Positions 7,985-23,980 are shown, counted from the stretch's first letter. The stretch: 25,522 nt of DNA from an uncultured Pseudomonadota bacterium (GCA_964518205.1 CAZFDQ010000215.1:1-25522), one strand, 5' to 3'. Notes: generated by a model not told the origin, from the sequence alone. Translations and numbers: made by a program.

Positions 7985-8005
7985 GACCGCTAGGGGGATT
8001 TTATT

Positions 8006-8458: not shown

Positions 8459-8586
8459 GATTTTATAGAAGCATTAGTTTGAAATTAAAGTTAGTGATGA
8501 CAATAGTAGGCAATATTGATTGTTTGTTGTAGTTAGGTATGATGATTGTGTGCCTGTGAATGAGTTGTAAATTATGATAAGTAGTG

Positions 8587-8700
8587 TTGTCATCCCGGCC
8601 TACGAGCCGGGATCCACAGTAATATAATAATGTAGGTAACTTTTATAATTGGATATTGTTTATTAATTGTTTGGATCCTGAAGTAAGTTCAGGATGACAA
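8587..8700. repeat. REP/RPE-like doublet (REPIN/MITE-like), 114 bp
   Basis: Outer inverted repeat TTGTCATCC (8587-8595)/GGATGACAA (8692-8700); left hairpin ATCCCGGC/GCCGGGAT (8592-8599/8606-8613); right hairpin ATCCTGAA/TTCAGGAT (8675-8682/8688-8695); inner GGATCCA/TGGATCC around an AT-rich spacer. Confidence 0.85.
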
Positions 8701-8779
8701 CTCACTGAATATAGTGTTAGTTTTTAAAAGAACACAACATGGTTAAATAAAATTAAATATATTATGGAAAAGGGTTAGT

Positions 8780-9739
8780 ATGATAGCAACAGCTATAAGT
8801 GGTTTTTTTGTATTTTTTATAATTCTTGTAATCTTTCTTTTAATTGTTTTAGCAAAAGCAACTTATATAGTAAAACAGTCAGAAGTTATAATGATTGAAA
8901 GATTAGGAAAGTTTCATAAAATTTTGCAGTCCGGTATTCATTTTGTAGTGCCGTTTGTAGATCAGCCTAGAAAAGTTTTTTGGACTTTCATAAAAGAAGA
9001 TCCAAATAGAAGACATATTTATCGTTATACAGAACTTGTTGAGCGTATAGATTTACGTGAAGCTGTTTATGATTTTCCGAAACAAAATGTTATTACAAAA
9101 GATAATGTAACAATGGAAATTAATGCATTACTTTATTACCAAATTACAGATCCAATGTATGCTGTTTATGAAGTAACAAATCTTGGCCAAGCGATAGAAA
9201 AATTAACACAAACAACATTAAGAAATATTATTGGTTCTATGGATCTGGATGAAACTTTAAGTTCTCGTGATATGGTTAACGAAAAGTTGCGTGAAATTTT
9301 GGATGAAGCAACAGATAAGTGGGGTGTTAAAGTTAATCGTGTTGAATTGCAAGAAGTAAACCCTCCAATTGATATTAGAACTGCAATGGAAAAACAAATG
9401 CGTGCAGAACGTGATCGTCGTGCTTTAATTTTAGAGGCTGAGGGTAAGAAGCGTGCGGCAGTTTTAGAAGCTGAAGGTGTTAAGCTTGCAAAAATTACTA
9501 AAGCAGAAGGTGAAGCCGAAGCAAGGCTTGTTACAGCAAATGCTGAGGCTGAAGCAATTCAAATGATTCAAAAATCTGTTCCAAATGCTGATCCGTTGCC
9601 ATATTTGATTGCATTAAATTACATCAAAGCATTACCTGAAATTACAAAAGATAAAGAGGGTAAATTGATTTTAATGCCTTATGAAGCAAGTGGAGTGATG
9701 GGGTCTTTGGCAACAATAAAAGAATTATTTAAACAGTAA
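8780..9739 (+). CDS. SPFH/band 7 stomatin-like membrane protein (QmcA/YbbK type)
   Basis: N-terminal TM helix, IERLGKF, GIHFVVPFVD, IDLRE, QNVITKDNV, LTQTTLRNIIG, LDETLSSR, WGVKVNRVELQEV, AMEKQMRAER, AEG-rich coiled coil. Confidence 0.93.
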   Translation: MIATAISGFFVFFIILVIFLLIVLAKATYIVKQSEVIMIERLGKFHKILQSGIHFVVPFVDQPRKVFWTFIKEDPNRRHIYRYTELVERIDLREAVYDFPKQNVITKDNVTMEINALLYYQITDPMYAVYEVTNLGQAIEKLTQTTLRNIIGSMDLDETLSSRDMVNEKLREILDEATDKWGVKVNRVELQEVNPPIDIRTAMEKQMRAERDRRALILEAEGKKRAAVLEAEGVKLAKITKAEGEAEARLVTANAEAEAIQMIQKSVPNADPLPYLIALNYIKALPEITKDKEGKLILMPYEASGVMGSLATIKELFKQ

Positions 9740-9745
9740 AAAAAT

Positions 9746-9772
9746 AAAGGGGGCAAATTTTTGCCCCCTTTT
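9746..9772. terminator. Bidirectional rho-independent terminator
   Basis: AAAGGGGGCAA-ATTT-TTGCCCCCTTT with A-run before and T-run after, between convergent genes. Confidence 0.85.
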
Positions 9773-9783
9773 ATACTCAAATT

Positions 9784-10230
9784 TTATTGTTCAACATCCA
9801 AATAATACTTGGGCCACGCGCCCTTTATATAAAAAGTGTTCATTATGGGGTCATCATATATTTTTTGTTGTTCATTATTAATGTAAAAACTACTTCCATC
9901 TTCTTCTGTATAAATAGTCATAAATTCAGCAGGATCGCTGTTTGTTTTTCTGATTTTTAAGCTATGTAAAATCCATGTTATTTCTTTATCTTCTTTTGTT
10001 TCAATCATTTTTCGGTAAAAATTTTTTATTGTTTCATTAGAAATTCGGATCCAGTCGTTAGAAGAACATTCTATTTTTGAAGAGTTTTGTTTTTTATAGC
10101 AGGTACAGACCATTACATCTTCATCACTTTTGTTTGTTAGTTCAAATTCTTCATATCTGTGTATTTCTGCACTTATATGATTTGAAAATAAGAAAGTAAA
10201 TATAAAAATATTTAGCCAAAATTTTTTCAT
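9784..10230 (-). CDS. Hypothetical secreted protein
   Basis: SD AAGGA; signal peptide MKKFWLNIFIFTFLFSNHISA; mature region begins FELTNKSDEDVMV. Confidence 0.8.
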   Translation of the reverse strand: MKKFWLNIFIFTFLFSNHISAEIHRYEEFELTNKSDEDVMVCTCYKKQNSSKIECSSNDWIRISNETIKNFYRKMIETKEDKEITWILHSLKIRKTNSDPAEFMTIYTEEDGSSFYINNEQQKIYDDPIMNTFYIKGAWPKYYLDVEQ

Positions 10231-10241
10231 GATGTTCCTTA

Positions 10242-10859
10242 TTATTTTCTAAATACTATTTCAGATTGTTCTATTTTCAAATGATATTCTTTTTCTTCAG
10301 GTTCAATTTTTATTATTGTTTCTTCTGATGGAGTTGGTGTTGTTTCTTTTTGATCTGGTTGTTCTGTTGGGGGTCCCATTTGTTCTGAAGTTGGAGTAGT
10401 TTCATCTGGCATACCTTCTGTGGTTGATGGCATATCTTTTGGTGTTTCCGGAGTAGGGGCTGGGGGCATTTCTGCAGGTTCTTGTGAAATTTCTTCTGCG
10501 GGTTCTTTGGTGACTATATCGCTTTCCATTTCTTTGGTGTTAATTATTACTTTTGTGATAGCAAAATTTTCTTTTGGGTCAGGGATTTTTAGTTTTTGTT
10601 TGCCAATTATGATGTAGTTGAGGTTATCTTCCTGCTCATTCTCTGCCATAAAAACTTTTTCTTCATCGGCATTTAATATGATTCCGGCTGTCCCAATAAT
10701 GCCTTCGCCTTGTGCCCCTAAACCATAACCACCGATAACTGTAAGTTGATGATCGGTTCCATTTTTTACAGGAATTCCATAGATAGCTTCTTTGGCGGAA
10801 TAATTCTGCACAAACAAGATGGTAGAAAAGATTGTTGCCAAAACTAAAAATTTTTTCAT
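10242..10859 (-). CDS. Hypothetical secreted protein with Pro/Thr/Glu-rich insert
   Basis: SD GAGAGG; signal peptide MKKFLVLATIFSTILFVQNYSA; IPVKNGTDHQLTV; low-complexity EPAE...ETTPTPSEE segment. Confidence 0.8.
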   Translation of the reverse strand: MKKFLVLATIFSTILFVQNYSAKEAIYGIPVKNGTDHQLTVIGGYGLGAQGEGIIGTAGIILNADEEKVFMAENEQEDNLNYIIIGKQKLKIPDPKENFAITKVIINTKEMESDIVTKEPAEEISQEPAEMPPAPTPETPKDMPSTTEGMPDETTPTSEQMGPPTEQPDQKETTPTPSEETIIKIEPEEKEYHLKIEQSEIVFRK

Positions 10860-10894
10860 GAAATCCCTCTCAATAAAAAATCCTTTTTTGATGG

Positions 10895-11251
10895 TTACTC
10901 AATAGCTCCTTGTCTTATTGTATAAGCTATTTTGTTTGGATTGTTTCTTGCATTGAATAAACCTGAATATTTTGAATCTATTTCGGTATTATTTTGGTTT
11001 GCTGTTATTTGTGTTATTTCATAAAGATTAGAGATTGTAACATTTTTAGTGGCTGTGGCTTGTACATTTATTATTATTTCGCTCGCTGATCGTTGTACGG
11101 CTGTTTTTTTGTATTTTATTGCAACAGAGATGTCTTGATTTAAGTTGTTTGTAATACTTATTATTTTGTCTGGGTAAGTTTGTTGTCCATAACAATTCCA
11201 ATTTAAACCAACCAAACTCAAAATAGCCGTCAAAAATAATAGTTTTTTCAT
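10895..11251 (-). CDS. Hypothetical secreted protein
   Basis: AAGGAG upstream of ATG 11251 (preferred over 11323); signal peptide MKKLLFLTAILSLVGLNWNCYG; ISITNNLNQDISV. Confidence 0.75.
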   Translation of the reverse strand: MKKLLFLTAILSLVGLNWNCYGQQTYPDKIISITNNLNQDISVAIKYKKTAVQRSASEIIINVQATATKNVTISNLYEITQITANQNNTEIDSKYSGLFNARNNPNKIAYTIRQGAIE

Positions 11252-11433
11252 GACTTTCTCCTTTTTTTTAATTTTATTTATCTTTACACTTTTATAATAT
11301 ATGTTTTGATTATCAAATAGCAATAGTTTGTTTGTTTTAATTAGGTGGTATTTTAAGTAGGAGCTGGTTATTTAGTTTGTATTTGGAATAATAGAGGGGG
11401 GTTGAATTGTTTGTGAATTATTATAGAGGTGTC

Positions 11434-11461
11434 GTCATCCCTTACTATGAGACGGGATCCA
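11434..11461 (+). repeat. Degenerate single copy of the GTCATCC...GGATCCA palindrome
   Basis: GTCATCCCTTACTATGAGACGGGATCCA versus GTCATCCCGGCCTACGAGCCGGGATCCA at 8589-8616: same length, 24/28 identical by manual count. Confidence 0.75.
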
Positions 11462-11540
11462 GATATTTAATTGTTCTTTGTTTATTATATTTGCTTGATA
11501 CATCAATATAAAATCAAATATAAATGAACTATAAATCCTA

Positions 11541-11574
11541 AAAAAATGGGCAAACCAAAGCTTGCCCATTTTTT
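11541..11574 (-). terminator. Rho-independent terminator after the small membrane-protein gene
   Basis: 13-bp stem AAAAAATGGGCAA/TTGCCCATTTTTT with an 8-nt loop; U-tract on both strands; 17 bp past the stop at 11592. Confidence 0.8.
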
Positions 11575-11591
11575 AGTTCTAGTAATATGTT

Positions 11592-11858
11592 CTATTTCTT
11601 CTGCATTTTTTTATAAAGCATAATTGCTAAAAAAGCAATTCCAAGAACTATTAAAATTATTAAACTCCACTTAATAATTCCGGAAAACATAAACCAACCT
11701 TTAAAGCGTCCCCAAGTGTTGCGCATTCCTCGCATTCCACCCATTCCATAGCCTTGTCCTGAACCTCCTTGTCCTCTTTGAGAAAAAAGGCTCAAGGGAA
11801 ATATGGCGAAAATTGTTGATAATATAAACAATGCTTTATTTTTTATTTTATTGATCAT
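11592..11858 (-). CDS. Small Gly/Met-rich membrane protein
   Basis: SD AAGGAG; N-terminal hydrophobic segment, GQGGSGQGYGMGGMRGM linker, C-terminal TM helix and KKMQKK tail. Confidence 0.75.
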   Translation of the reverse strand: MINKIKNKALFILSTIFAIFPLSLFSQRGQGGSGQGYGMGGMRGMRNTWGRFKGWFMFSGIIKWSLIILIVLGIAFLAIMLYKKMQKK

Positions 11859-11920
11859 AGTTTTCTCCTTTTTTTTAATAGAACTACAATACTACTTCTT
11901 ACATCTTCATTATATACTTG

Positions 11921-13711
11921 CTATTTGTCTATTTGCAATAGTTTTATTGTTTTGGATAATTTACGATGGTAGCTTATGGCGAAATGGTGCGCATAGTCGC
12001 GTAATGATATTAAAACTTGGCCAGCGTAGGTTTGTAGGTTTAGCTTTTTGCCTTCGGGGATTTTTACAGAAAATACGGTTTCTTCTCGTTTTGCAAGACT
12101 TATAAAATTTGCTTCGGAAAAAAGATCTTTTACGGCATTAAGTTGTCCTTTGCCGCCGTCAATTAAGATAAGATCGGGTAACTCTGATTTATTTTTGTAT
12201 CTTCTTTTTACTATTTCACGCAAACATGCGTAATCGTCTTGATGTTCAACGGTTTTTATTTTAAAACGTCTGAATTTATCTTTGTCTGGTTTACCATCTT
12301 TAAAGCGGATACAAGATCCAACCATAAACATGCCTTGTTTATGTGATATATCAAAGCAGTCTATTGTGTGTGGTTCGATGTCTAATCTGAGAAGATTTTT
12401 TAATGCTTTTGGAATAGTTTTTTGTTTTTTAATTTCTTGTTTGGCATGTATTTTTGCAAGCTTTATCAAGCTTGCAAAATGTCCAGATTTTGGTTGTTGA
12501 ACAGTTACTTTGTGTTCTTTATTGCCTGTGATCCGAAGCCTTGCTGTGCCCGCCGGAGCCTTGTACGAAGGCTGGGGCGAAGGATTATTCCATTTTTGTA
12601 AGAATTGTTCGAGTAGTTTCTTGTCTTTGATTTCAAAGTTAGAAAGAATTGTATTTGGACATGAATGGTTTTGGTAGTAGCTGGTTAAGTATTTGAGGGG
12701 AAGTTGTTCGTTTGTATCCGTTCGACTACGAGATTTTATCTCTTCGTTCAGAATGAACGGATTTTGGGTTATTTTTGTTTTTATAGTCCGTTCGCCCTGA
12801 GTGGAGCAACGCGAAATCGAAGGATGCGAACGGATTTCATCTAACAAAAAATAAAAAGCATACTTTTTACGCAAAGCGCTATTTTTTTCAGTAAAAACAA
12901 ACAAAACTTTTTTATCTGGAGTTAAGATCCAAATATCTTTATCGCCCAAGCTTTTAATTGAAGATTTTGTAGAAAAGTTTGTTTGCAAAGATTCGAACAC
13001 ATTTTGAAATGCTTTGTAGTACTCATGTAACTCTTTTGATTTTTCAAAATTAAGCTTTTTATTTTCTTTTTCAATTTCTTGTTCAAGGTGTTTTAAGAAG
13101 TTTTTATGACCTTTTTTTAATGCAAGCTTTGCAAGTTCTAATCGTTGTATGTAAGCATTTTTGTCAAAGTCGGGACGGCAGTATCCTGCGCATATTCCCA
13201 TATGATAATCAAGGCATCCATTTTCTATTTTTTTCTTACAAAGCTTTAGTTTGAAAGTTTGAATTAAAAAATCATACACTTTTCGGGCTGGTGTTTTTTC
13301 TAAGAATGGGCCAAAGTAGACACCTTTTTCTTTTTTGTTTCTAATAATTTTTAGTTCAGGTAATTTTTTGGGAGGAGTTGTTATGAGAATGTATAAAAAC
13401 AGTTGTCCTGTTTTGAGTAATATATTAAATTTTGGTTGATTTGATTGAATTAGCTGTGCTTCCAGCAGCATTGCTTCGAGTTCGTTTTTTGTAGTGATAA
13501 AATCAATTTTTTGGCTGCTTTCAATAATTGCACAGGCCTTTTTATTGGTATCTTGTTTTTGAAAATAACTGGCAACACGTTTTTTTAGATTTTTTGCTTT
13601 ACCGATATAAAGAATTTGATCATCTTTATCTTTAAATAGATAGACCCCTGGCTTTGCGGGTAATTTTTTGAAATCGGTAATGAGGTTTGAGAGGTTTTTA
13701 TTTTGTATCAT
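11921..13711 (-). CDS. uvrC: Excinuclease ABC subunit C, with two in-frame palindromic insertions and no C-terminal HhH
   Basis: GIY-YIG domain PGVYLF...YIGKAKNLKKRVASYF, ALMLEAQLI-type helix (AMLLEAQLI), Cys cluster LCKK...CLDYHMGICAGYC, UVR-like LNFEKS, RNase H-like domain IDCFDISH...LILIDGGKGQL...SLAKREE...RDYAHHFAISYHR. Confidence 0.93.
   Translation of the reverse strand: MIQNKNLSNLITDFKKLPAKPGVYLFKDKDDQILYIGKAKNLKKRVASYFQKQDTNKKACAIIESSQKIDFITTKNELEAMLLEAQLIQSNQPKFNILLKTGQLFLYILITTPPKKLPELKIIRNKKEKGVYFGPFLEKTPARKVYDFLIQTFKLKLCKKKIENGCLDYHMGICAGYCRPDFDKNAYIQRLELAKLALKKGHKNFLKHLEQEIEKENKKLNFEKSKELHEYYKAFQNVFESLQTNFSTKSSIKSLGDKDIWILTPDKKVLFVFTEKNSALRKKYAFYFLLDEIRSHPSISRCSTQGERTIKTKITQNPFILNEEIKSRSRTDTNEQLPLKYLTSYYQNHSCPNTILSNFEIKDKKLLEQFLQKWNNPSPQPSYKAPAGTARLRITGNKEHKVTVQQPKSGHFASLIKLAKIHAKQEIKKQKTIPKALKNLLRLDIEPHTIDCFDISHKQGMFMVGSCIRFKDGKPDKDKFRRFKIKTVEHQDDYACLREIVKRRYKNKSELPDLILIDGGKGQLNAVKDLFSEANFISLAKREETVFSVKIPEGKKLNLQTYAGQVLISLRDYAHHFAISYHRKLSKTIKLLQIDK
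12524..12583 (-). repeat. 60-bp palindromic insertion in uvrC (codons 377-396), apparently nested
   Basis: GC-rich island encoding PSPQPSYKAPAGTARLRITG; inner hairpin AGCCTT-N5-AAGGCT; flanked by ATT on both sides (12521-12523 and 12584-12586). Confidence 0.75.
12716..12835. repeat. 120-bp palindromic doublet inserted in frame in uvrC (codons 293-332)
   Basis: Outer inverted repeat ATCCGTTCG/CGAACGGAT. Sub-hairpins 12716-12762 (ATCCGTTC/GAACGGAT) and 12787-12834 (TCCGTTCGC/GCGAACGGA) separated by an AT-rich spacer. Exactly 40 codons. Confidence 0.85.
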
Positions 13712-13980
13712 TTTTTATTTTAAATGTTTTTATTTTATAATCAGCATAAGTTGTTTTCTTTCTTAAAGCCCGAGGTTAAAAACCTTTATTCACATTCATG
13801 GATAAGATTGAATTTTTAAACATAGACCTTTAATTTACCTGTTTGTAAATTTTACCAGTTTTTGCTGCAAAAATAAAAATAATGGCAAAATATCTAATTT
13901 TTCAATTTACTATGTAAAAAAAATAGGTATATTTATGTTGTCGGAACAAGATATGTTTTATTTCAAAAAAAAGGATGACC

Positions 13981-15192
13981 ATGCTTCATAAGTTTAAAAT
14001 CCCTCTAATTGTGTTATTTGTTGGTTTAATTGGGCTATGGATTGGCAGTTCTGTTTTTAATTATTTTACTTATTCCATGTCTCCAGAAATTAAGTTGGAG
14101 GGAATAGATAAAAACGGGCATTACGCTGGATTGCTGAATTGCATAATTAAATCTAATAATGGTTATAAAGTTTCTGAGATTACAACTACATTGGATGGTA
14201 AAGAATTAGAGTTAAGTAAGGCAAAAAAAATAAATGCAAAAACATTCCAAATACCTTTTAGGCTTGATACATTGAATATGTCTAAGGGGCAGCATACATT
14301 ACAAATAGAAGCGGTTGATTCTAGCTATAACCAAAACAGAACAAAAGAAAGTTGGGAATTTTATGTTGATAATGATCCTTTAAAAGCAGCTTTTCTAGAG
14401 ACGGAATATAGGGTTGATCAAGGTAGAACAATTCATGCTAGGATACAAACAAATAAGAGTTTACAAAAGGCTCAAATTAAATTTTTAGAAAATGTTTATG
14501 ATTGTTATCCAGAAAATGAGTATTCAAATGTTTACGAATGTTTCATTCCAATTCCTTGTGAGCAAGCATCAGAAGAGCATATGATAATGGCAGACCTTAG
14601 GGACTTTGTTAATAACTCGGTAAAACTTACAAGTAAGGCTGTTATTAACGCTGTTAATTTTCCAAAGCAACGTGGTTTTACTGTTGCAACAGAAAAGTTG
14701 GACGAAGAAAAAGAAGTTAGTATGAGCAATAGAATTCTTTCTGAAGCATTAGAAAAATGGCTAAAAGATTCTCCTCAAAAAAAATTGTGGTCTGGCCCGT
14801 TTGAAACTCCAATTGATGTTAAAAGAACAACAACGCCTTTTGGCGAAATTCGTACAAGTGCACAAAAAGGAAGATATTTACACAGTGCTGTAGATATTAC
14901 CAATTATCCAAAGAGTGTTGTTTGGGCATCCCAAGATGCTAGAGTTATTATTAAAGATAGATATCTTTTTTCAGGTAATACTGTTGTGTTAGATCATGGT
15001 CTTGGTGTTTTTACTCTTTATTACCATCTAGAGGATTTTGCGGATATCGAAGTTGGTGATTTTGTTAAAAAAGGTAACCCTATTGGACGCTTAGGTATGA
15101 CCGGTTATGCGAATGGTTATCATTTACATTGGGAATTACGCGTTAAAAATGTTCCGGTAGATCCAATTGAGTGGACCAAAAAGACTTTTTAA
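13981..15192 (+). CDS. Membrane-anchored M23 family metallopeptidase
   Basis: N-terminal TM helix; beta-rich region with HTLQIEAVD; M23 motifs HSAVD (HxxxD), GNTVVLDHG, YYHL, G..VKKGNPIG..GMTG, GYHLHWE (HxH). ATG 13981 has SD AAGGA; 13975 is the alternative start. Confidence 0.9.
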   Translation: MLHKFKIPLIVLFVGLIGLWIGSSVFNYFTYSMSPEIKLEGIDKNGHYAGLLNCIIKSNNGYKVSEITTTLDGKELELSKAKKINAKTFQIPFRLDTLNMSKGQHTLQIEAVDSSYNQNRTKESWEFYVDNDPLKAAFLETEYRVDQGRTIHARIQTNKSLQKAQIKFLENVYDCYPENEYSNVYECFIPIPCEQASEEHMIMADLRDFVNNSVKLTSKAVINAVNFPKQRGFTVATEKLDEEKEVSMSNRILSEALEKWLKDSPQKKLWSGPFETPIDVKRTTTPFGEIRTSAQKGRYLHSAVDITNYPKSVVWASQDARVIIKDRYLFSGNTVVLDHGLGVFTLYYHLEDFADIEVGDFVKKGNPIGRLGMTGYANGYHLHWELRVKNVPVDPIEWTKKTF

Positions 15193-15382
15193 TTATTTTA
15201 CCTATTCATACTTTAGATATTTCTTGAAAGATTTTTTTTGTGATAAAAGATCTTGTGGCATGATGTTTGCCTTTGTTTTTTAAAAAATTAAAATAAAATT
15301 CTTTACTTTTTGCTTTTTTATTATTTAACTTATCCTAAGTTTGAAATAATAAAAGATTTTTGGAAAGGATAATACGGGATTT

Positions 15383-15964
15383 ATGTCGAACCATTTAGGT
15401 GAGAATAAGTTAATAACAACCTTAGTTAGATTGCCACGATTTGCAAGGTTTTTAATAACACTTGCCATGCTCGCCTTCACTTCTTTAACTTGGTTCTTTT
15501 TTTCTTATCTTTCTTTAAATCAGGAAATAAATGGAGAGAATCAAAAATATCAAAATTATTTAGAACAAAAATTTATCTTGCAAAAAACTGTTAAAAATCT
15601 TGATCTTGAAAAAGTTAAAAATGAAATTTTAAGCAAACAACTCAAAAACAACCTTAAGGATGATGGTTTATTGCAGTCTGAGATGGATTTTGTTTTAAAT
15701 TCATTAAACCAAAATAGTTTAGTTTGTTCTGAATTTGAACCTCTAGAAAATCTAGAAGATGAATTTTTTAGAGAAGAATATTATCAGTTTAGAGCGAGTG
15801 GTGATTTTAAAAATGTGGTATCGTTTTTAACAGATCTACAAAACTTTGGAGGTAGTATAAAGTTTAAAGATGTTCAATTTGTAAGAATAGGTAAAGATAA
15901 AATCTCAATAGTTGCAAAGTTAGGGATAGTCAATTTTTTGAGGGATGATGAGCAAGATACATGA
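15383..15964 (+). CDS. pilO: Type IV pilus assembly protein PilO-like
   Basis: N-terminal TM helix, coiled coil, then EFEPLE...EFFREEYYQFRASGDFKNVVSFLTDL, resembling the PilO core; first gene of a pilO-P-Q-order cluster. Confidence 0.7.
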   Translation: MSNHLGENKLITTLVRLPRFARFLITLAMLAFTSLTWFFFSYLSLNQEINGENQKYQNYLEQKFILQKTVKNLDLEKVKNEILSKQLKNNLKDDGLLQSEMDFVLNSLNQNSLVCSEFEPLENLEDEFFREEYYQFRASGDFKNVVSFLTDLQNFGGSIKFKDVQFVRIGKDKISIVAKLGIVNFLRDDEQDT

Positions 15965-16283
15965 TCTTTTATTGATGTCTATTTCGTTTATAACACCTAT
16001 CTGTTTAACGCAAAACTTTCAAAATCTACGAGACCCTTTTTCTCTTCCAACTCCAAAAAAATCAGATCTACAAGAAACTAAAAAAATCGATGATATAGAT
16101 CAAATCAATTTAATTGGTATTACAAAAGTAAACGATAATGTTGGAGCGATATTGCAAAAAGGATTTAACCAGGAGGTTGTATTTTTGAATGAAAATATTT
16201 GGGGGTATAGGGTGGAGAGTATAAATGAAGGTTCTGTTATTATAAAAAAAGAAGGGAGGTTTATAAGGTTATCTGTAAAGTGA
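15945..16283 (+). CDS. PilP-like pilus assembly protein
   Basis: RDPF motif, LIGI...GAIL...G..V..I beta region; sits between pilO-like gene and secretin; overlaps the upstream gene, SD GAGGG. Confidence 0.6.
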   Translation: MMSKIHDLLLMSISFITPICLTQNFQNLRDPFSLPTPKKSDLQETKKIDDIDQINLIGITKVNDNVGAILQKGFNQEVVFLNENIWGYRVESINEGSVIIKKEGRFIRLSVK

Positions 16284-16353
16284 GTTTTTAAAATTCATAT
16301 TTAGAAAAAAAGGAGAAAAAGGAGAAAGGGGAGGGGAGAAACGGAGAGTAGTA

Positions 16354-18048
16354 ATGAAGCATATTCTTTCCTCTAGGATGGGTATATCTTTTTCCCGATT
16401 AATCTTATTATGTTTTTGTTCTTTAAATGCAACTTCTGCTTTTATTCCAAAACAAGAATATGACGTCTCGGACCTTCCCCCTTCTCCTTCTAATTTATTA
16501 AAGGAAGCGGGTAAGGCTCAAGATAAAAAAGAAAAACAAGAGATAGAGCAAATTATTAAACGTGTTATAAAAAGTTCAGATAAAGAACTAGAAGAGCAAG
16601 CAGAAAAGCTTGTAAGTGATAAAGATAAGTTAGCTCAGTTTTTAACTTTTTTGCCAAAAGATATTTTACAAGAAGAAGAGAGAGAAAAAGATTTAACAGT
16701 TTCAAAAGAGGTCAAAGATTTATTAGATCTTCAATACAAAGACCCCGAATTGTTGAGAAAAAATATTTCTCTTAAATTAAAAAATACGGATGTAAGACAA
16801 GCAATTGAGTTAATTGGCAAAACCGCAGATTTAGATTTTTTTATTGATCCTCGAGTTGGTGGAATTGTTAATAATATTCACTTAAAAGAAGTTTCTGTTG
16901 GTTCGGCTTTAAATATAATTTTATCTGGAAATAAACCAAAACTTGCATTAGTTAAAGATTTGGAAATATTTAGAATAGTTTTATTAAGCGATGCTATTTA
17001 TCTTTTAAAAAATAGAGCTCAAGATTTGTTTGAACAGGATTTTGTAAGCGATTTTATAACAATTTATAATGCAAAGTGGTCAGAAAGTTTTAAATTACGT
17101 TTGGAAAAAATGTGGTTTGGTATTGTAGGTGAAGCGGCAGAAAAGGATGGGTATTTTTTAGTCTTTGATGATCATACAAAAAAAATATTTTTCAGAGGTC
17201 GTAAGTTACAAGTTCAAGATTTTAAAAAGTTTTTGCAAGAAGTTGATGCAAAAATTCCACAGGTCAGAATTGAAACTCGAGTTGTTATTGCAAGTAAAGA
17301 TTTTGAAGAAAGTTTTGGGTTACAAATTTCAGGAATTTATAACAGAAGTGCAAGTGTTGCGCAACACAGTTGGGGCTTTGTTGGTGCAGGGCCGGTTTCA
17401 AGCGGGGGAAATGGAGATTTTCCGACTGGTGGTTTGATGGATTGGGCATTAAATATGTTGCCTTCTAGTGCTAATCAATTTTTAAATTTACCATTAATTT
17501 TTGGAGGAAAAGATTTAAATACACGCAGATTAAATCTTGTCTTAAACGCATCAGAAAATCAGAATGAAATTAAAACAATTCTAAAACCAACACTTTTGGT
17601 AAATAGTGAAGAACCGGCGGAAATTTTGGTTGGAGAAGAGGTGCCAATAGAAACAAGTGTAGAAGAAAAAATAGAAGGCTCTTTGCGCAATGTTAATACT
17701 ATTAATTACAAAGATTTGGGAATGAAACTAAAAGTAAAACCCGTTGTGGCCCCTGATAATAATTCAGTTTTTTTGGATATTTATGTTGAAAATTCTTTTG
17801 TAAAAGACGCAACAACTTTTAATGCCAAGACATCAATTATTACAACATCTAAATCCAAAAATAGAGTTTTATTGAAAAGCGGTCAGACAACAATGATTGG
17901 TGGATTGATTAAAACAGATAAAAGAAAATATAAACAAGGTATTCCGCTTTTGCAAAATATTCCATTGCTTGGAAATTTGTTTAAAGGGTCAAAGCGGAGT
18001 GAGGGTGATTCGCAATTGATGATTTTTATTTCACCGACGGTTGTATAA
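16354..18048 (+). CDS. pilQ: Outer-membrane secretin, PilQ/GspD family
   Basis: STN-like ISLKLKNTDVRQAI, N-domain ending FLQEVDAKIPQVRIETRVV, secretin C-domain LGMKLKVKP, LLKSGQTTMIGGLI, GIPLLQNIPLLGNLFK, LMIFISPTVV. The pilQ versus gspD assignment rests on synteny. Confidence 0.85.
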   Translation: MKHILSSRMGISFSRLILLCFCSLNATSAFIPKQEYDVSDLPPSPSNLLKEAGKAQDKKEKQEIEQIIKRVIKSSDKELEEQAEKLVSDKDKLAQFLTFLPKDILQEEEREKDLTVSKEVKDLLDLQYKDPELLRKNISLKLKNTDVRQAIELIGKTADLDFFIDPRVGGIVNNIHLKEVSVGSALNIILSGNKPKLALVKDLEIFRIVLLSDAIYLLKNRAQDLFEQDFVSDFITIYNAKWSESFKLRLEKMWFGIVGEAAEKDGYFLVFDDHTKKIFFRGRKLQVQDFKKFLQEVDAKIPQVRIETRVVIASKDFEESFGLQISGIYNRSASVAQHSWGFVGAGPVSSGGNGDFPTGGLMDWALNMLPSSANQFLNLPLIFGGKDLNTRRLNLVLNASENQNEIKTILKPTLLVNSEEPAEILVGEEVPIETSVEEKIEGSLRNVNTINYKDLGMKLKVKPVVAPDNNSVFLDIYVENSFVKDATTFNAKTSIITTSKSKNRVLLKSGQTTMIGGLIKTDKRKYKQGIPLLQNIPLLGNLFKGSKRSEGDSQLMIFISPTVV

Positions 18049-18101
18049 ATATATAAGTTAGGGGAAATGGATGGTTAAAAAGCTTATTTAAAGGGAGATT
18101 C

Positions 18102-18130
18102 TTTTCAAAACCTAATATTCTTGCTATAAG
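18102..18130 (+). promoter_or_regulatory. Candidate sigma70 promoter for comM
   Basis: TTTTCA-N17-TATAAG with extended -10 TG (18122-18123). Confidence 0.35.
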
Positions 18131-18165
18131 TCTTTATTGCTTTGGGGTGAATTTAATAAAAAGAA

Positions 18166-18189
18166 TAGATCCTGAAATAATTTCAGGAT
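18166..18189 (+). repeat. Single copy of the ATCCTGAA...TTCAGGAT palindrome upstream of comM
   Basis: TAGATCCTGAAATAATTTCAGGAT versus TGGATCCTGAAGTAAGTTCAGGAT (8672-8695): 21/24 identical; 9-bp stem with 3-nt loop. Confidence 0.75.
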
Positions 18190-18231
18190 ACACAACAATA
18201 ATACAATTTTTTTACAACTTTGGATTGGTTT

Positions 18232-19764
18232 ATGCACTCAAAAATATTTTCTGCAACAACAATTGGAATTACAGCTCACCTGGTGGAAGTTGAAGCTGAT
18301 CTTTCTATGGGGATGATCAATTTTTATATAGTAGGTCTTGCCGATAAAGCTATAAAAGAGAGTAAAGATAGAATTCGTGCTGCGCTTAAAAATAGTGGTA
18401 TGCGGCTTCCCGAACGTTTAATAACCGTAAATCTTGCTCCGGCGAACTTAAAAAAACAAGATACGTTATTTGATCTTCCAATAACCGTTGCAATTTTGCA
18501 GGCGGCTCGCTTGCTTGATCTTTCTTCTGAATTTGTTGAAGAAACTTTATTTTTGGGTGAACTTTCTTTAGATGGACATATTCGTTCTGTTTGTGGAGTT
18601 CTTTCTATTGCTCACGCAGCTTTGCAGATGGGCAAAAAACGAATAATTGTTTCTAAAAAAAATACACAAGAAGCTAGTTTGATCAAGGGTATTGAAGTTA
18701 TTGGTGTTGATAGCTTGGTTGATTTGGTAGCCTACTTAAGGCACGAAAAAGAGATAAAACCAACACCGTGTAGTTTTGATAGTTTTAAAAACTTAATTCA
18801 AAACCATCCGCTAGATTTTGACCAGGTAAAAGGTCAATGGCAAGCAAAACGTGCCCTACAAATTGCCGCTGCAGGACAACATAATATTGTATTTGTTGGT
18901 CCTCCTGGTTCAGGTAAAACTATGCTTGCAAAAAGGTTGGCAACAATTTTGCCACCGCTTTCTTTTGATCAAATTATTCAAACAACAAAAATTTATTCAA
19001 TTGCAGGATTGTTGAATAGCGAATCCTTGGTTTTACACCGTCCTTTTCGCTCTCCACACCATACAATTTCTCAAGCTGGACTTGTTGGAGGAGGTTCCAA
19101 TCCGCGTCCGGGAGAAATTAGTTTGGCGCACAATGGAGTTTTGTTTTTGGACGAACTCACAGAATTTAACAGATCGACTTTAGAAGTTTTGCGTCAACCT
19201 CTTGAAAGTAAAAAAGTTTTAATTTCTCGTGCAAGCAATTCCATCGAATATCCAGCAGCATTTTTGCTTGTTGCTGCATTGAATCCATGTCCGTGCGGTT
19301 ATTATGGAGATAAGAAAAAAGAATGTGTGTGTACTTCGCAACAAATTCAAAAATATTTCAATAAGCTTTCGGGTCCTTTGCTGGATAGAATAGATCTTCA
19401 TATAAATGTAGCATCTATTGATTATGATGATATAAAAGATGAAAACTTGCGTGGCAGAAGTTCCAAGCAGATGTATAAAGATGTTGAGTGTGCCGTGCTG
19501 GTTCAGAAGAAGCGTTTTGGGAACATGCGCAATGCTTATATGAGTGCCGAGCAAGTTGAAAAATTTTGTAAATTAACACTAGAAGCAGAACAAACAATAA
19601 AGATGGCTTTTGAAAAATTAAACTTAAGTATGCGTGGATATCATAAAATTTTAAAAATAGGCAGAACAATAGCTGATTTATGTGAATCTGAAATGATAGA
19701 AAAAGCGCATATTCGCGAAGCTATTATGTACAGGACTTTAGATAGAGAACAACAAAAAATGTAG
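18232..19764 (+). CDS. comM: ComM/YifB Mg-chelatase-like AAA+ ATPase
   Basis: VEVEADL...IVGLADKAIKESKDRIRAAL, ITVNLAPA, FDLPI, FLGELSLDG, Walker A GPPGSGKT, RPFRSPHH, PGEISLAHNGVLFLDE, NPCPCG, SGPLLDRIDL, RTIADL. ATG 18232 preferred. Confidence 0.93.
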   Translation: MHSKIFSATTIGITAHLVEVEADLSMGMINFYIVGLADKAIKESKDRIRAALKNSGMRLPERLITVNLAPANLKKQDTLFDLPITVAILQAARLLDLSSEFVEETLFLGELSLDGHIRSVCGVLSIAHAALQMGKKRIIVSKKNTQEASLIKGIEVIGVDSLVDLVAYLRHEKEIKPTPCSFDSFKNLIQNHPLDFDQVKGQWQAKRALQIAAAGQHNIVFVGPPGSGKTMLAKRLATILPPLSFDQIIQTTKIYSIAGLLNSESLVLHRPFRSPHHTISQAGLVGGGSNPRPGEISLAHNGVLFLDELTEFNRSTLEVLRQPLESKKVLISRASNSIEYPAAFLLVAALNPCPCGYYGDKKKECVCTSQQIQKYFNKLSGPLLDRIDLHINVASIDYDDIKDENLRGRSSKQMYKDVECAVLVQKKRFGNMRNAYMSAEQVEKFCKLTLEAEQTIKMAFEKLNLSMRGYHKILKIGRTIADLCESEMIEKAHIREAIMYRTLDREQQKM

Positions 19765-19848
19765 TTCTTTTTGTTTGTAACTATATTCATTATTTCATAT
19801 TAGGCGAAGATGATTTTTTTGGTATTGAAAGGATAGTGCAAGATATAT

Positions 19849-20268
19849 ATGATTTTAGGAATAGGTACAGATATTGCTCAAATAGATAGATTTGCTGATT
19901 GGGAAAAAAAACCAGAAAAACATTTATTAAAAATATTTTCGGAACAAGAACTTGTTGATTGCAAAAATAGAACTGGTTATTGCTTAGAAAAATTGGCTTC
20001 ACGCTTTGCAACAAAAGAGGCTTTTTTTAAGGCGTTAAGTGCTACTTTAATTAGATTAAATTTAACGAATAACGAATTTTCTTTTTTATTTTCTTGTGAG
20101 CATATTTCTATTGTTAAAGGCAGGTGGGGTGTCCCACAGCTAGAAGTTAGTTGGCCAGCTTTTGAAAAAAAAGTAGGACAAAAATTTTCTGATTATTTGG
20201 ATGTTCATCTTTCTCTTTCTCATGAAAAATCACATACTTTAGCGTTTGTGGTTATATCTAAAAAATAA
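19849..20268 (+). CDS. acpS: Holo-[acyl-carrier-protein] synthase
   Basis: MILGIGTDI, LASRFATKEAFFKAL, G.P, LSLSHE...AFV. Confidence 0.92.
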   Translation: MILGIGTDIAQIDRFADWEKKPEKHLLKIFSEQELVDCKNRTGYCLEKLASRFATKEAFFKALSATLIRLNLTNNEFSFLFSCEHISIVKGRWGVPQLEVSWPAFEKKVGQKFSDYLDVHLSLSHEKSHTLAFVVISKK

Positions 20269-20353
20269 AAAAATTCTTGAAAAAAGTCTTAAACAGATTA
20301 AAGTCTTAAGCAGGTAGAAAGTATTAGTTTTTATCGGTTTAAGGCTTTTTTTT

Positions 20354-21952
20354 ATGCGAAGAAAAAAATTAGGACATATTTTATCCGGATCACTTAGCGA
20401 AGGCTTAGTGATGCGACTTGATTCAAGCAGTTGTCTGGAAGATGTAAAAACGGGCAAATTTGTTTCTATTGTTGGTAACCAATATACATTTTTTTCTTTA
20501 ATAACAGACCTTGAACTTGAAGTTACAAATCCAGATATCCTGCTTTTCCCTCCAGATGAAGATGAAAAATTATTATCTAATATTTTAAAAAAGCGTGACA
20601 TTTATGCAAAAGTGAATCTACGGCCTATATTGATGCTTGATCGTGATAATAGTAAAATGCCTGTTAAAACTATTCCTCATCATTTTTCAACTGTGTATGA
20701 TGCAAGTGCTGCTGATGTTGCTCAAATTTTTGGTGATGAGCATGAAGATCAAAAATATTTTAATATAGGCGTTCCTTTGGACATGCAAACACCGGTTTGC
20801 CTGAATTTAGATTATTTTACAGAACGCAGTAACGGAATTTTTGGAAAAAGTGGGACAGGGAAAACTTTTATAACCCGTTTAATTTTAGCTGGTCTTGTTA
20901 AAAGTCAAAAAGCGGTAAACCTAATTTTTGACATGCACTCTGAATATGGTTTTCAGGCGCGCAAAGAAGGTGGCGGGCTTTCTTTTGTAAAAGGTCTTAA
21001 ATCTTTATTTCCAGATAAAACTGCGATTTTTTCTTTAGATCCAGATTCTACAAGAAAGCGAGGGTGTAGCCCAGATATTGAAGTAGTCTTGAGTTATCAG
21101 GATATTCGTGTCGAAGATATTATTTCTTTGCAAGATGAGCTTAATTTGCATCCAACAGCTTTAGAAGCGGCTTATCTTGTTGCTAGTAAATATAAAAAAA
21201 ATTGGTTACAGATATTACTTGATCAGGGTGAGACGATAAAAGAGTTTGCTCAAGAAATTGGTGCGCACGCGGAATCTATTGGTGCGCTTTATAGAAAATT
21301 AAAACGTTTGGAGAGATTTTCTTTTTTGCAAAAATATTCTTCGGGCGAATCTGTTATAGATAAACTTTTAAGTTATTTGGATAAAGGCATTCATATAATC
21401 TTGGAATTTGGCAACAATACATCTATGCTTTGTTATTTGATGGTTGCAAACATTATTACTCGCAGATTGCACGATGCTTATGTTTCTAAAACAGAAAAAT
21501 ATTTAGCCACACAAAAAAAAGAAGATGAACCCAAAAAGCTGATGATAACAATTGAAGAAGCTCATAAGTTTTTAAATCCAACCGCAGCACGGCAAACAAT
21601 TTTTGGAATTATTGCGCGTGAGATGCGTAAGTATTATGTTTCTTTGTTGGTTGTGGATCAGCGTCCATCGGGAATTGATAATGAAGTTTTATCTCAAATT
21701 GGCACTAAAATTGTAGCCCTTTTAAATGACGAAAAAGATATTCAGGCTGTGCTTACTGGAGTAAATAATTCTTCTGGATTGCGAACAATTCTTTCTACCT
21801 TGGATACAAAAAAGCAATCTCTTGTAATGGGGCATGCTGTTCCAATGCCTGTAGTGATTAAAACTCGAGAATACGACGAATCATTTTATGGTGCCATGGG
21901 GGCGTTTGTTGGAATAAAAGATATCAATAAGGTTATTGATGAGATCTTTTAG
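20354..21952 (+). CDS. HerA-like (DUF87, FtsK/HerA superfamily) ATPase with N-terminal HAS-barrel-like region
   Basis: N-terminal GHILSGSL...GKFVSI...FSLITD; Walker A IFGKSGTGKT; IFDMHSEYG; Walker B ITIEEAHKF; IAREMRKY; DQRPSGID..VLSQ. Confidence 0.85.
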   Translation: MRRKKLGHILSGSLSEGLVMRLDSSSCLEDVKTGKFVSIVGNQYTFFSLITDLELEVTNPDILLFPPDEDEKLLSNILKKRDIYAKVNLRPILMLDRDNSKMPVKTIPHHFSTVYDASAADVAQIFGDEHEDQKYFNIGVPLDMQTPVCLNLDYFTERSNGIFGKSGTGKTFITRLILAGLVKSQKAVNLIFDMHSEYGFQARKEGGGLSFVKGLKSLFPDKTAIFSLDPDSTRKRGCSPDIEVVLSYQDIRVEDIISLQDELNLHPTALEAAYLVASKYKKNWLQILLDQGETIKEFAQEIGAHAESIGALYRKLKRLERFSFLQKYSSGESVIDKLLSYLDKGIHIILEFGNNTSMLCYLMVANIITRRLHDAYVSKTEKYLATQKKEDEPKKLMITIEEAHKFLNPTAARQTIFGIIAREMRKYYVSLLVVDQRPSGIDNEVLSQIGTKIVALLNDEKDIQAVLTGVNNSSGLRTILSTLDTKKQSLVMGHAVPMPVVIKTREYDESFYGAMGAFVGIKDINKVIDEIF

Positions 21953-21960
21953 GTAAAAGG

Positions 21961-22221
21961 TCACCCCTAAAGGGGTTTGTGTGGAGAGGGAGAATCTATT
22001 ACCACGGGCTGAAGCCCGAGGCTAAAATATATTGCCCTTTCAGGGCAAAGAGAATATCAATAAATATAAAGCTTTATTAATTATTTAACTCTAATTTAAA
22101 AATGGGATTGTTTAAAAATTGTTTTTTTAGTTTTTGCCCTGTAAGGGCAATAGTATTTAGCCTCGTGCTTTAGCCCGTGGTTATGAAGCTTCCCATGTCA
22201 CCTAAACCCCTTTAGGGGTGA
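21961..22221. repeat. 261-bp composite inverted repeat (REPIN-like), two 89-bp arms with three hairpins each
   Basis: Arms 21961-22049 and 22133-22221 align as reverse complements without gaps: first 18 bp identical, 19-bp divergent block, then 45/52 identical; 83-bp AT-rich spacer. Confidence 0.9.
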
Positions 22222-22316
22222 TACGTTGATATATAAACCCTTTATTTTTTCTATATTATTAATAAACTAGTGTGTATGTTTGTAAGACGTTAATTTTTAA
22301 CAGAGAAAGGTTTTTT

Positions 22317-22898
22317 ATGAAAAAGATTTTATTGGCAGTAGCGATTGTTGGAATTTTGAGTACGAATGTGCAGGCTGCAGAATCAAAAGATTTTGTTTCA
22401 ATAGATAGTTTGCTTTTGATGCAAAAATCTAAAGAAGGTCAAAAATTGATGGCCGAAGTTCAAAAAGATGTTGAAATTTTTCAAAAGCAGGTTCAAGAAG
22501 CACAAAAAGAAGTTGTAGAATTTCAAGAAAAAATTACCAAGCAAGCAAAAATTTTAAGCAAAGAGGCATTGGTAGAAAAAGGAGAACAGCTTTCTGCTAA
22601 GAAAAAGCAAGCGGAACGTGAATTGTCGGATAGAGAGGAATCTTTAAAACGCAATATCGAAAGAAAGCAGCTTGCATTGCGTGAAAAACAAATGAGAATA
22701 GCAAACGAAATTTTTGAAAAAGAAGGTTGGGGGTTGATGATAGATCGCAATACTCCAGGTGTTTTGTTTGTTAATAATGCAATAGATAAAACAGATAGTA
22801 TCTTAAAAACTGTTGATGAAAAATTTGATACAGAATTTGCAAAAGATGTTGTAGAAAAAGCACAAAACAAAGAAAATACAAAAACAAAAAAAGCATAA
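22317..22898 (+). CDS. skp: Skp/OmpH periplasmic outer-membrane-protein chaperone
   Basis: Signal peptide MKKILLAVAIVGILSTNVQA, FVSIDSLLLMQKSKEG, long coiled coil, LMID...VLF....DKTD.ILK; directly upstream of lpxD. ATG 22317 has SD AGAAAGG. Confidence 0.85.
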   Translation: MKKILLAVAIVGILSTNVQAAESKDFVSIDSLLLMQKSKEGQKLMAEVQKDVEIFQKQVQEAQKEVVEFQEKITKQAKILSKEALVEKGEQLSAKKKQAERELSDREESLKRNIERKQLALREKQMRIANEIFEKEGWGLMIDRNTPGVLFVNNAIDKTDSILKTVDEKFDTEFAKDVVEKAQNKENTKTKKA

Positions 22899-23941
22899 TG
22901 CAAATAAATCTAACTTTAGCTGAAATAGCAAAGATCATCGGAGCCGAGTGTTCCGGTGATTCTTTTTTCATTAAAAATATTGCTTCCTTGCAAAATGCAC
23001 GAGAAAGTGATTTGGCTATTATTATTGACAGGGGTGAGCAGTCGGTTTTTGGTCAAATTTCTTCAGACGAAGTAAAAAAAAGCGGAGCTTCTGTTATTTT
23101 AGCTAACAAAGAAGTTGTTGAAGGTAAAAAATATTTGTTGGTACAAGATACTTTAACTGCTTTTACAAAGCTTGCAGATTATGTTGAAAAACAAAAATTG
23201 AGTCAATATGTTGCGCCTGAAATACATCAAACTGCAATTGTTGGCAACAGTGCTGTAATTGAGGGTGGAGTTGTAGTTGGAGCCAACAGTATGATTTCAG
23301 AACAAGTTTATATTGGAAGAAATGTAACTATTGGAGCAAACGTAAAAATTTATCCTGGCGCAAAAGTTTTGGATGATTGCATTGTTGGAGATAATACAAT
23401 AATTCATTCCGGTGCTGTGGTTGGTTCCGATGGATTTGGTTACAGTGTTACAAAAACAGGTTTGCGCAAAATTCCTCAAGTTGGAATTGTACGAATTGGT
23501 ACTCATGCAGAAATTGGTGCAAATTGTTGTATAGATAGAGCAGCTTTTGATCAAACCATTATTGGTAATGGCGTAAAGCTTGATAATATGGTGCACATTG
23601 CTCACAATGTTGTTATTGGAGATTGCACCGCAATTTTAGCACACACTGGAATTGCTGGAGGCGTTCAAATTGGAGTAGGTTGCCAGATTGGCGGCCAAGT
23701 TGCAATTAAAGATCACATTAAAGTTGGAAACGGTGTAAAGATAGTTTCAAAAAGCGGTGTTATGAACAACTTGCCAGATGGTACAACGGTTTGTGGCACT
23801 CCTGCTGTTTCTTTTAATAATTGGAAGAGAACTAAGGTTGTTGAAACAAAGTTACCGGAGATTTATAAAGAATTTATAAAGTTGAAAAAACTGTTTGATG
23901 GTAAAAAGGTTGGTTTTTGGAGACGCTTGTTCGGTGTTTAA
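22898..23941 (+). CDS. lpxD: UDP-3-O-acyl-glucosamine N-acyltransferase LpxD
   Basis: LAEIAKIIGAE..GD...I.NIASL..A N-domain, hexapeptide repeats, GSDGFGY, PQVGIVRIG, EIGANCCIDRA, KLDNMVHIAHNV; TAATG overlap with skp. Confidence 0.93.
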   Translation: MQINLTLAEIAKIIGAECSGDSFFIKNIASLQNARESDLAIIIDRGEQSVFGQISSDEVKKSGASVILANKEVVEGKKYLLVQDTLTAFTKLADYVEKQKLSQYVAPEIHQTAIVGNSAVIEGGVVVGANSMISEQVYIGRNVTIGANVKIYPGAKVLDDCIVGDNTIIHSGAVVGSDGFGYSVTKTGLRKIPQVGIVRIGTHAEIGANCCIDRAAFDQTIIGNGVKLDNMVHIAHNVVIGDCTAILAHTGIAGGVQIGVGCQIGGQVAIKDHIKVGNGVKIVSKSGVMNNLPDGTTVCGTPAVSFNNWKRTKVVETKLPEIYKEFIKLKKLFDGKKVGFWRRLFGV

Positions 23942-23961
23942 CAAATATTATGCCTTAAAGA

Positions 23962-23980
23962 GCCTTGCTTTATGCAAGGC
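23962..23980. repeat. GC-rich hairpin between lpxD and prs
   Basis: GCCTTGC-TTTAT-GCAAGGC perfect 7-bp stem, followed by GG and no U-tract. Confidence 0.55.

Follow-up and report, generated by a model that had tools for sequence, protein, structure and literature searches.

Introduction

The TnpA transposase of IS608 and the repetitive extragenic palindromic (REP) transposase of Escherichia coli cleave and join single strands of DNA under the guidance of hairpins, and the Rickettsia palindromic elements (RPE-1; Ogata et al. 2000) reportedly lie in frame within conserved housekeeping genes. In the systems described as REPIN-RAYT (RAYT, REP-associated tyrosine transposase), REPtrons or TIRtrons (Nunvar 2010, Bertels and Rainey 2011, Ton-Hoang 2012), a single-copy gene for a Y1 transposase carries inverted hairpins on both flanks, and gene-less hairpin doublets are dispersed through the genome. 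The CGTC-tagged REP superfamily, which includes RPE-4 and RPE-6 of Rickettsia conorii and dRS3 of Neisseria, has, according to its description, no dedicated transposase associated with it and intragenic copies that lie mainly in replication and repair genes (Di Nocera, De Gregorio and Rocco 2013, PMC3733652). Finally, the Acido-Lenti-1 motif was described without a function (Weinberg et al. 2010, PMC2864571), is filed by Rfam (RF01687) as a small RNA (sRNA) of Acidobacteria and Lentisphaerae, and is of unknown or little-known function according to two 2026 preprints. In this report we compare with these systems the palindromic repeats found between positions 8587 and 23980 of a 25.5-kb stretch of DNA (GCA_964518205.1 CAZFDQ010000215.1; hereafter the window), which is the entire contig C215 and the longest of the 295 contigs of a metagenome-assembled genome (MAG).

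Our reading, held with good confidence, is that the window carries members of three genome-wide palindromic families, termed A, B and D, together with one orphan insert; that family D is most likely moved by a Y1 HUH transposase encoded on another contig (C94), families A and B flanking none of the Y1 genes; and that the copies lying in coding sequence are tolerated. Copy numbers, repeat architecture, the flanking of Y1 genes and the absence of the inserts from orthologous proteins were observed directly. The system is of a known kind, REP/RAYT repeats combined with RPE-like coding insertions, in a lineage without an earlier description in the searched literature. To that extent the novelty suggested in a preliminary description of this DNA stands; it does not extend to family A, which is an already known REP type.

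Host genome and repeat inventory

The MAG comprises 1.48 Mb at 32% GC and is 90.7% complete, with an estimated contamination of 2.8%. Protein comparison places the host in the phylum Dependentiae, the nearest relatives of its AlaS being Candidatus Dependentiae/Babeliales MAGs at 50–60% identity. The gene content of the window is of a housekeeping character (alaS, an SPFH protein, uvrC, an M23 peptidase, a secretin, a ComM-like ATPase, herA, ompH, lpxD and prs). A whole-genome 12-mer count combined with self-BLAST yielded 184 short repeated segments, 16.3 kb in total, that sort into clusters. Family counts based on regular expressions were judged against block shuffles of the genome, and all copy counts are lower bounds because the MAG is split into 295 contigs. 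For comparisons across the phylum we used a sample of 151 Dependentiae genomes with reversed patterns as controls, which gave 0 matches for families A and B.

The repeat sequences listed in the preliminary description are all present in the window where it placed them. Of the four or more palindromic families that it had counted there, A, B and D prove to be genome-wide and C is single-copy; the layout that it ascribed to A, B and D, a pair of hairpin units inverted relative to each other on either side of an AT-rich spacer, is borne out in all three. The self-BLAST clusters add families that it had not listed, namely E, F and several GTAG-tagged types, family F being counted from its 7 self-BLAST members only, as its regular-expression count is no higher than in shuffles. 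The three outcomes that the preliminary description had named as fatal to its proposal, namely low copy number, lack of a HUH transposase and lack of other coding insertions, were none of them obtained.

Family D and the Y1 transposase genes

The family D doublet of the window (21961–22221), situated between herA and ompH, is a 261-nt dyad composed of two 110-nt arms, each with three hairpins, around a 41-nt AT-rich spacer; the arms are 75% complementary, and the DNA folds at -71.6 kcal/mol. The triple-hairpin family that had been suspected at this site is confirmed, with approximately 15 copies genome-wide that extend to about 10 other contigs. Despite the inverted arms, no direct repeat was found between the 10 nt on either side of the doublet, so that no target duplication of the kind expected of a miniature inverted-repeat transposable element (MITE) is visible.

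It is correct that the window encodes no mobilizing enzyme, as the preliminary description had noted, but a search of the genome with PF01797 (Y1_Tnp) identified six loci elsewhere, of which four are intact (C285, C94, C190 and C200), one is broken (C286) and one is truncated by a contig end (C20). The four intact genes score 83–92 bits and their products are 39–52% identical to one another, and both the histidine-hydrophobic-histidine (HUH) motif and the catalytic tyrosine motif YI..QE.HH align among them. The C94 gene lies between two complete D doublets, an arrangement that a public contig of 85 kb, matching C94 at 100% identity, bears out. Because these two doublets flank it, the apparently single-copy C94 Y1 HUH transposase is most likely the cognate enzyme of family D, which we regard as a REPIN-like doublet. 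Inverted hairpin repeats also occupy both flanks at C190 (family E), C200 and C286, and most of these repeat types are also dispersed as gene-less copies, that of C200 having at most one copy elsewhere in the genome. The C285 gene, as seen on a longer public contig, lies between a perfect inverted pair of GTAG type, and at the truncated C20 gene a repeat is visible upstream only. At the level of sequence, the layout of the Y1 loci is that of REPtrons and TIRtrons, and the suggestion that several REP-transposase systems coexist in this genome is borne out by the presence of multiple Y1 genes, each with its own inverted repeats.

The likeness to REPIN-RAYT systems encompasses the apparently single-copy Y1 gene with inverted hairpin flanks, the dispersed gene-less doublets and the coexistence of several pairs, each with its own repeat, and it extends to the GTAG (CTAC) sequence at the hairpin foot in most families. 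In contrast to those systems, the proteins here score above the cut-off of the IS200 model of NCBIfam and below that of its RAYT model, the copies are few (about 5–15), and the D arms are long (110 nt, with three hairpins) and carry CTAA in place of CTAC. The long three-hairpin arms and the CTAA sequence bring family D closer to the class termed “TIRYT.”

Related genes are not confined to this genome. Y1 matches occur in 51 of the 151 Dependentiae genomes and are of two classes, one scoring high and present in multiple identical copies, the other scoring low and present in one or two copies; the Y1 genes of the present genome belong to the latter. In five relatives (G006, G009, G010, G158 and G001) the RAYT-like genes have hairpin-bearing flanks, with an evident GTAG-tagged inverted pair in all but G001, where the inverted pairing is weak. 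Relative G009 carries two near-identical Y1 copies; the paralogs within the present genome, a fragmented MAG, share the 39–52% identity given above.

The mechanism best supported for family D and the GTAG types is modelled on IS608 TnpA and the REP transposase of E. coli: the dimeric Y1 enzyme encoded next to the repeat would bind a hairpin on single-stranded DNA and would cut and rejoin the strand beside the conserved tetranucleotide at the hairpin foot, which reads CTAA in family D and CTAC, the complement of GTAG, in its sister families; catalysis and the pairing of each enzyme with its repeat are both inferred. At least four further Y1 genes each have their own inverted hairpin repeats, and families A and B, the latter a nested palindrome, would spread as inverted doublets and occur patchily across the phylum. 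A copy that lands in a gene would persist only if it can be translated free of stop codons and lies in a tolerant linker; copies of this sort add 13–53 residues to UvrC, MnmG, FtsK, UppP, TrmD and other proteins.

Family D and the Acido-Lenti-1 motif

Scanned against Rfam, the window yields a single match above the gathering score of its model. It lies in the left D arm, whose second and third hairpins (22002–22047, plus strand) fit RF01687 over the full length of its 46-position model with 40.3 bits, the gathering score being 37 bits. The partner arm (22135–22180, minus strand) scores 21.4 bits and the other D copies 17–35 bits, all below that threshold. Genome-wide there are 23 matches at E ≤ 1, among them the D copies, two copies of family E and units beside the C286 and C200 genes. 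Matches of the doublets to plant microRNA and snoRNA models were discarded, as they lie far under the gathering scores and reflect a long hairpin only. The RF01687 seed sequences contain a hairpin followed by CUAC, equivalent to GTAG on the opposite strand, and the resemblance of the left D arm to the model includes the joining of two hairpins by CTA plus a linker. Family D differs in being a DNA repeat that flanks Y1 transposase genes in another phylum, and in that the partner arm and the other copies remain below threshold. At the GTAG-type Y1 loci of relatives, no RF01687 match was found at E ≤ 0.05.

The association of motif and enzyme recurs in other phyla. Five loci encode four homologs of the C94 protein, and four of the five are bracketed by an inverted RF01687 pair (two contigs with the same protein, at 45 bits on each side, and two Planctomycetes MAGs), the fifth having none. 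The RF01687 matches are the only Rfam matches in the bracketed loci at E ≤ 0.05, and their geometry is constant, with the motif on the minus strand upstream and the plus strand downstream, 38–147 nt away from the gene, the arrangement also seen at C94. In an acidobacterial MAG, which has 23 RF01687 matches in 6 Mb, both Y1 genes of the 77-bit class have the motif on either flank in this same geometry.

On this evidence we think it rather likely that Acido-Lenti-1 is the DNA recognition module, that is, the REP, of a clade of RAYT-like Y1 transposases spanning Acidobacteria, Planctomycetes and Dependentiae, and that Dependentiae join Rickettsia as a second intracellular lineage whose housekeeping proteins have repeatedly incorporated several unrelated REP families.

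Three further observations were made at these loci. In the two Planctomycetes MAGs (L156 and L157) the Y1 homolog occupies the same place, between ribD and a radA/dnaB-like gene, a shared position that fits vertical inheritance of a domesticated Y1 gene. At L159, a homolog of the C94 gene stands in a tight row of genes downstream of an RHS-repeat protein, without Acido-Lenti-1 flanks. The acidobacterial MAG G161 contains tandem arrays of Acido-Lenti-1 (C11:489519–490540 and C12:330743–331460) with periods of approximately 100, 168 and 223 nt, of which the 168- and 223-nt arrays adjoin Y1 genes.

Family A, a CGTC-type REP

The pattern TCATCC-N8–24-GGATCY matches 58 times genome-wide against 0–3 times in block shuffles, and with palindromic variants included the family amounts to 62 unique copies. 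The consensus unit consists of a CGTC or TGTC tag, the stem ATCCTGAA, a 5-nt loop and a CCA tail. Among the 58 matches the tag is CGTC in 27 and TGTC in 20 (47 together), and the CCA tail is present in 45; among the 62 copies the 8-bp stem, which begins with AT, is ATCCTGAA in 43, compensated variants also occurring, and the loop measures 5 nt in 48. Dimers are arranged head-to-head in 13 cases, tail-to-tail in four and head-to-tail in none. The spacers of the head-to-head doublets are 54–62 nt long in 11 of the 13, the other two measuring 31 and 87 nt, and they are conserved within subgroups only.

The window holds four units at the three sites named in the preliminary description, members of a family of about 62 copies. 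The unit at 8588–8616 (plus strand) has a TGTC tag, the 8-bp stem ATCCCGGC, a 6-nt loop and a CCA tail, and its stem variant recurs in exact copies on C206, C248, C229 and C38. Its inverted partner at 8672–8699 (minus strand), with the stem ATCCTGAA and again a TGTC tag, completes a head-to-head doublet whose tags point outward from a 55-nt AT-rich spacer. The other two are single units: that at 11433–11461 (plus strand) combines a CGTC tag and a CCA tail with a degenerate stem and matches the C206 copy at 88% over 41 nt, and that at 18166–18193 (minus strand) has an intact 9-bp stem and a degenerate tag side.

By its sequence features, family A belongs to the CGTC-tagged REP superfamily, with which it shares every listed trait: the CGTC/TGTC tag, the 8-bp stem starting with AT, the 5-nt loop, the CCA tail, a predominance of head-to-head dimers, copies within genes for repair and tRNA modification, and the lack of a transposase gene that it flanks. 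It differs in that Dependentiae are not among the five phyla listed in the part of PMC3733652 drawn on here, and in that the stem ATCCTGAA and its compensated variants are its own, the likeness to the named RPE and dRS3 repeats lying in these features. Elsewhere in the phylum, a degenerate A pattern occurs in 16 of the 151 Dependentiae genomes, drawn from five families, and each of these genomes has its own dominant, fully compensated stem (as in G021, G151, G092, G086 and G158). This suggests homogenization within each genome or bursts from one master copy.

Family A was considered, and rejected, as the cognate REP of the C285 Y1 gene, since its doublets stand upstream of that gene only, around a ParE/RelB pair, and the true flanks are of GTAG type. 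The locus is of interest in its own right: on the corresponding longer sequence (L149:1977–2761), two direct-order A doublets bracket a ParE toxin and a RelB-like antitoxin immediately upstream of the Y1 gene. A second toxin-antitoxin cassette framed by REP doublets, here of family E and not A, is found on C176 (800–2300; L155), where two E doublets bracket a hicA (52 bits) and hicB-like (24 bits, below cut-off) pair. It may be that the repeat pairs transport cargo, or that toxin-antitoxin cassettes accumulate where repeats are dense.

Family B and the orphan insert in uvrC

Family B was confirmed in uvrC, where it had been predicted, as a doublet of an 18-locus family: CGTTCG-N25–60-CGAACG matches at 18 loci (36 strand matches) genome-wide against 0–2 in shuffles. 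Its members have fixed ends (CCGTTCGCCCTGAG ... TCGAAKGGT ... CGAACGG) around a variable inner hairpin. In the uvrC doublet (12716–12834, approximately residues 294–333), the unit at 12787–12834 is a clear member and that at 12716–12762 a degenerate inverted partner. The family is found in 11 of the 151 Dependentiae genomes (10 besides this one), with inner hairpins that are specific to each genome.

The same gene holds a second hairpin-bearing insertion (12521–12585, approximately residues 377–398) of about 65% GC, which had been proposed as a nested family C (GCCTT..AAGGC). No second copy of this segment exists in the genome by BLAST with 7-nt words, and its 5-mers are too short to define a family; we therefore treat it as a single-copy, GC-rich orphan.

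Repeats read in frame inside proteins

The uvrC gene (11921–13711, minus strand) encodes a protein of 596 residues with GIY-YIG and RNase H-like endonuclease domains (Pfam), in which both insertions are in frame. Nine orthologs measure 521–558 residues, and the two segments, approximately 294–333 (the B doublet) and 377–398 (the orphan), occur only here. Both fall at boundaries of Pfam domains: the B doublet immediately precedes the first of two RNase H-like matches, and the orphan separates the two. The identical UvrC protein is encoded on 6 independent public contigs. In relative G003 (L095), UvrC has a short extra segment at the position of the family B insertion, and this linker may be a recurrent landing site.

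MnmG, at 748 residues against 611–656 in 13 relatives, provides a second case in which absence from orthologs is evident, the gaps left unaligned at 138–223 and 606–648 coinciding with an A doublet and a B doublet. Further hosts, identified by an open frame and Pfam matches, are FtsK (A and F), UppP/BacA (B and a GTAG type), a TrmD fusion, a short-chain dehydrogenase/reductase (SDR), two heparinase-like proteins and three proteins of no known kind; Pfam domains in such hosts are split or stretched. Three different proteins share one reading frame of family A, which gives the peptide SRHPELVSGS; in reverse it gives WILKQVQDDD. Open frames of 100 codons or more contain 10 of the 18 B copies and 10 of 65 A copies, four of the latter in proteins with a Pfam match; of random positions, 75% fall in such frames. 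The intact frames and the identical sequences across samples suggest that the insert-bearing proteins may still work.

Coding insertions prove to be general, with UvrC and MnmG proven against orthologs and about ten more hosts. The preliminary description, which saw REPIN-transposase systems as the source of such sequence, is not supported on one point: the families inside proteins, namely B, A, F and the orphan C, are not those with a cognate transposase.

As with the Rickettsia elements, the palindromes here are in frame in housekeeping genes of a reduced intracellular bacterium, are missing from orthologs, and encode the same peptide in different host proteins. The two cases differ in phylum and in sequence, the link between them resting on the assignment of RPE-4 and RPE-6 to the CGTC REPs in PMC3733652. 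They differ too in that at least three unrelated families (A, B and F) and a GTAG type are inserted in the present genome, and in that MnmG, FtsK and UppP each hold two families.

Weighing the reading and its alternatives

A number of results weigh against our reading. None of the six Y1 loci is flanked by family A on both sides or by family B, and 8 of the 16 A-bearing Dependentiae genomes have no Y1 match, among them G021 (24 copies), G144 (17), G092 (12) and G086 (10), at 91–95% completeness. RF01687 was not found in the 150 other Dependentiae genomes at E ≤ 1e-4 under strict filters, and family D may on that account be a recent arrival. The Y1 proteins pass the NCBIfam IS200 model NF033573 (64–78 bits, cut-off 55) and do not reach the RAYT model NF047646 (21–29 bits, cut-off 80), a result that rules out RAYT membership by NCBIfam; many of their homologs are labelled RayT by JGI. 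The elements gave no direct indication of being mobile: among contigs of four public runs aligned to positions 8000–23500 of the window, no element-less form was found, but contigs cannot show absence; contig ends in these runs fall in the A doublet, near the A unit at 11433–11461 and in a D arm. Finally, the MAG is in 295 contigs and some of the flanks are cut by contig ends.

It could be asked whether the resident Y1 transposases act in trans on every family, including A and B, with one REPIN-RAYT pair per family, as the preliminary description proposed. Y1 genes are certainly present, and copies of family A lie less than 600 nt from Y1 genes at C285 and at loci L139, L140, L141 and L143 of relatives, above the expectation from density. 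We nevertheless consider this extension doubtful, because the A doublets next to C285 bracket ParE/RelB on one side of a gene whose own flanks are of GTAG type, no Y1 gene is flanked by B, and A-rich genomes (10–24 copies) exist without a Y1 match; the literature on CGTC REPs (PMC3733652) is likewise without a transposase. A different possibility is that the Y1 genes are ordinary IS200/IS605 elements whose decayed ends or MITE derivatives constitute the hairpins, with no domesticated RAYT-REPIN relationship. The Y1 HUH fold family is common to both, hairpin recognition on single-stranded DNA is expected of both, the closest solved relatives of the Y1 proteins are IS608 and ISDra2 TnpA (IS608 TnpA: PDB 2A6M, 2VJV), the IS200 model is passed where the RAYT model is not, and other Dependentiae have classical multi-copy IS200-type genes at 120–150 bits. 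Unlike such elements, the intact genes here are divergent and apparently single-copy paralogs, their flanks are symmetric inverted repeats instead of left and right ends in like orientation, and doublets without a gene occur dispersed in the genome. No Pfam-recognized TnpB-type neighbor was seen, and the arm order of the window D doublet is opposite to that of a deletion derivative. The common ribD-radA position in the two Planctomycetes MAGs, as predicted by vertical inheritance, also speaks against it, and we regard this alternative as unlikely.

That the repeats are selected structural signals (terminators, mRNA stabilizers or, following Rfam, an sRNA) and not mobile DNA appears quite improbable to us. 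All window copies outside uvrC do lie between co-directional genes, RF01687 is listed as an sRNA, and stems tolerant of G-U pairs have been reported for REPs; against this, A units end in CCA and not in a T-run, both strands are used equally, and motif pairs bracket transposase genes in three phyla. Terminators in particular were considered and set aside, as only one of the four window A units and the third D hairpins look terminator-like; moreover, the repeats in about a dozen proteins cannot be terminators because they are in frame inside coding sequence. The probability that the repeats or the Y1 contigs are assembly or binning artefacts derived from another organism is close to negligible. 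Such an origin could be suspected from the fragmentation of the MAG, its 2.8% contamination estimate and the shortness of the Y1 contigs, but families A, B and D all reside on the 25.5-kb contig with Dependentiae housekeeping genes, C55, C94 and C223 prove to be parts of the 85-kb public contig (100% identity, 32% GC), and UvrC is identical in 6 assemblies. The reading set out at the beginning, in which D is most likely paired with the C94 enzyme and A and B with none of the resident Y1 enzymes, is the one that we retain.

Other hairpins in the window

Three further sites in the window were assessed and lie outside the families. Site 13764, suggested as a possible relic of family D, has only the common 8-mer GCCCGAGG to connect it, which occurs 8 times in the genome and 7 of these times outside the listed D copies; the RF01687 scan gave no match at this site. 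The hairpin at 23962–23980, once a possible member of family C, is single-copy, with a 7-bp stem that spans the prs start codon 21 nt past the lpxD stop, and it may affect prs translation. At 9746–9771, in the space between the SPFH gene and the gene of 148 residues convergent with it, there is a strong GC-rich hairpin of 11 bp bordered by a T-run on each side; it is likely a bidirectional terminator, separate from the repeat families.

Implications

With these results, the known range of REP/RAYT systems and of coding palindromes like those of Rickettsia takes in Dependentiae (TM6), a phylum whose members are reduced, intracellular and uncultured. The repeats also coincide with breaks between contigs and hence lower the quality of MAG assemblies in this phylum. 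With at least five pairs of Y1 gene and repeat and two abundant families lacking an enzyme in one small genome, the organism offers a compact system for asking what moves REPs of the CGTC type. The in-frame inserts in UvrC, MnmG, FtsK, UppP and TrmD constitute natural experiments on how proteins tolerate and gain segments. The link between Acido-Lenti-1 and Y1 transposases, for its part, gives an abundant orphan motif a testable function and cautions against annotating its matches as regulatory sRNAs.

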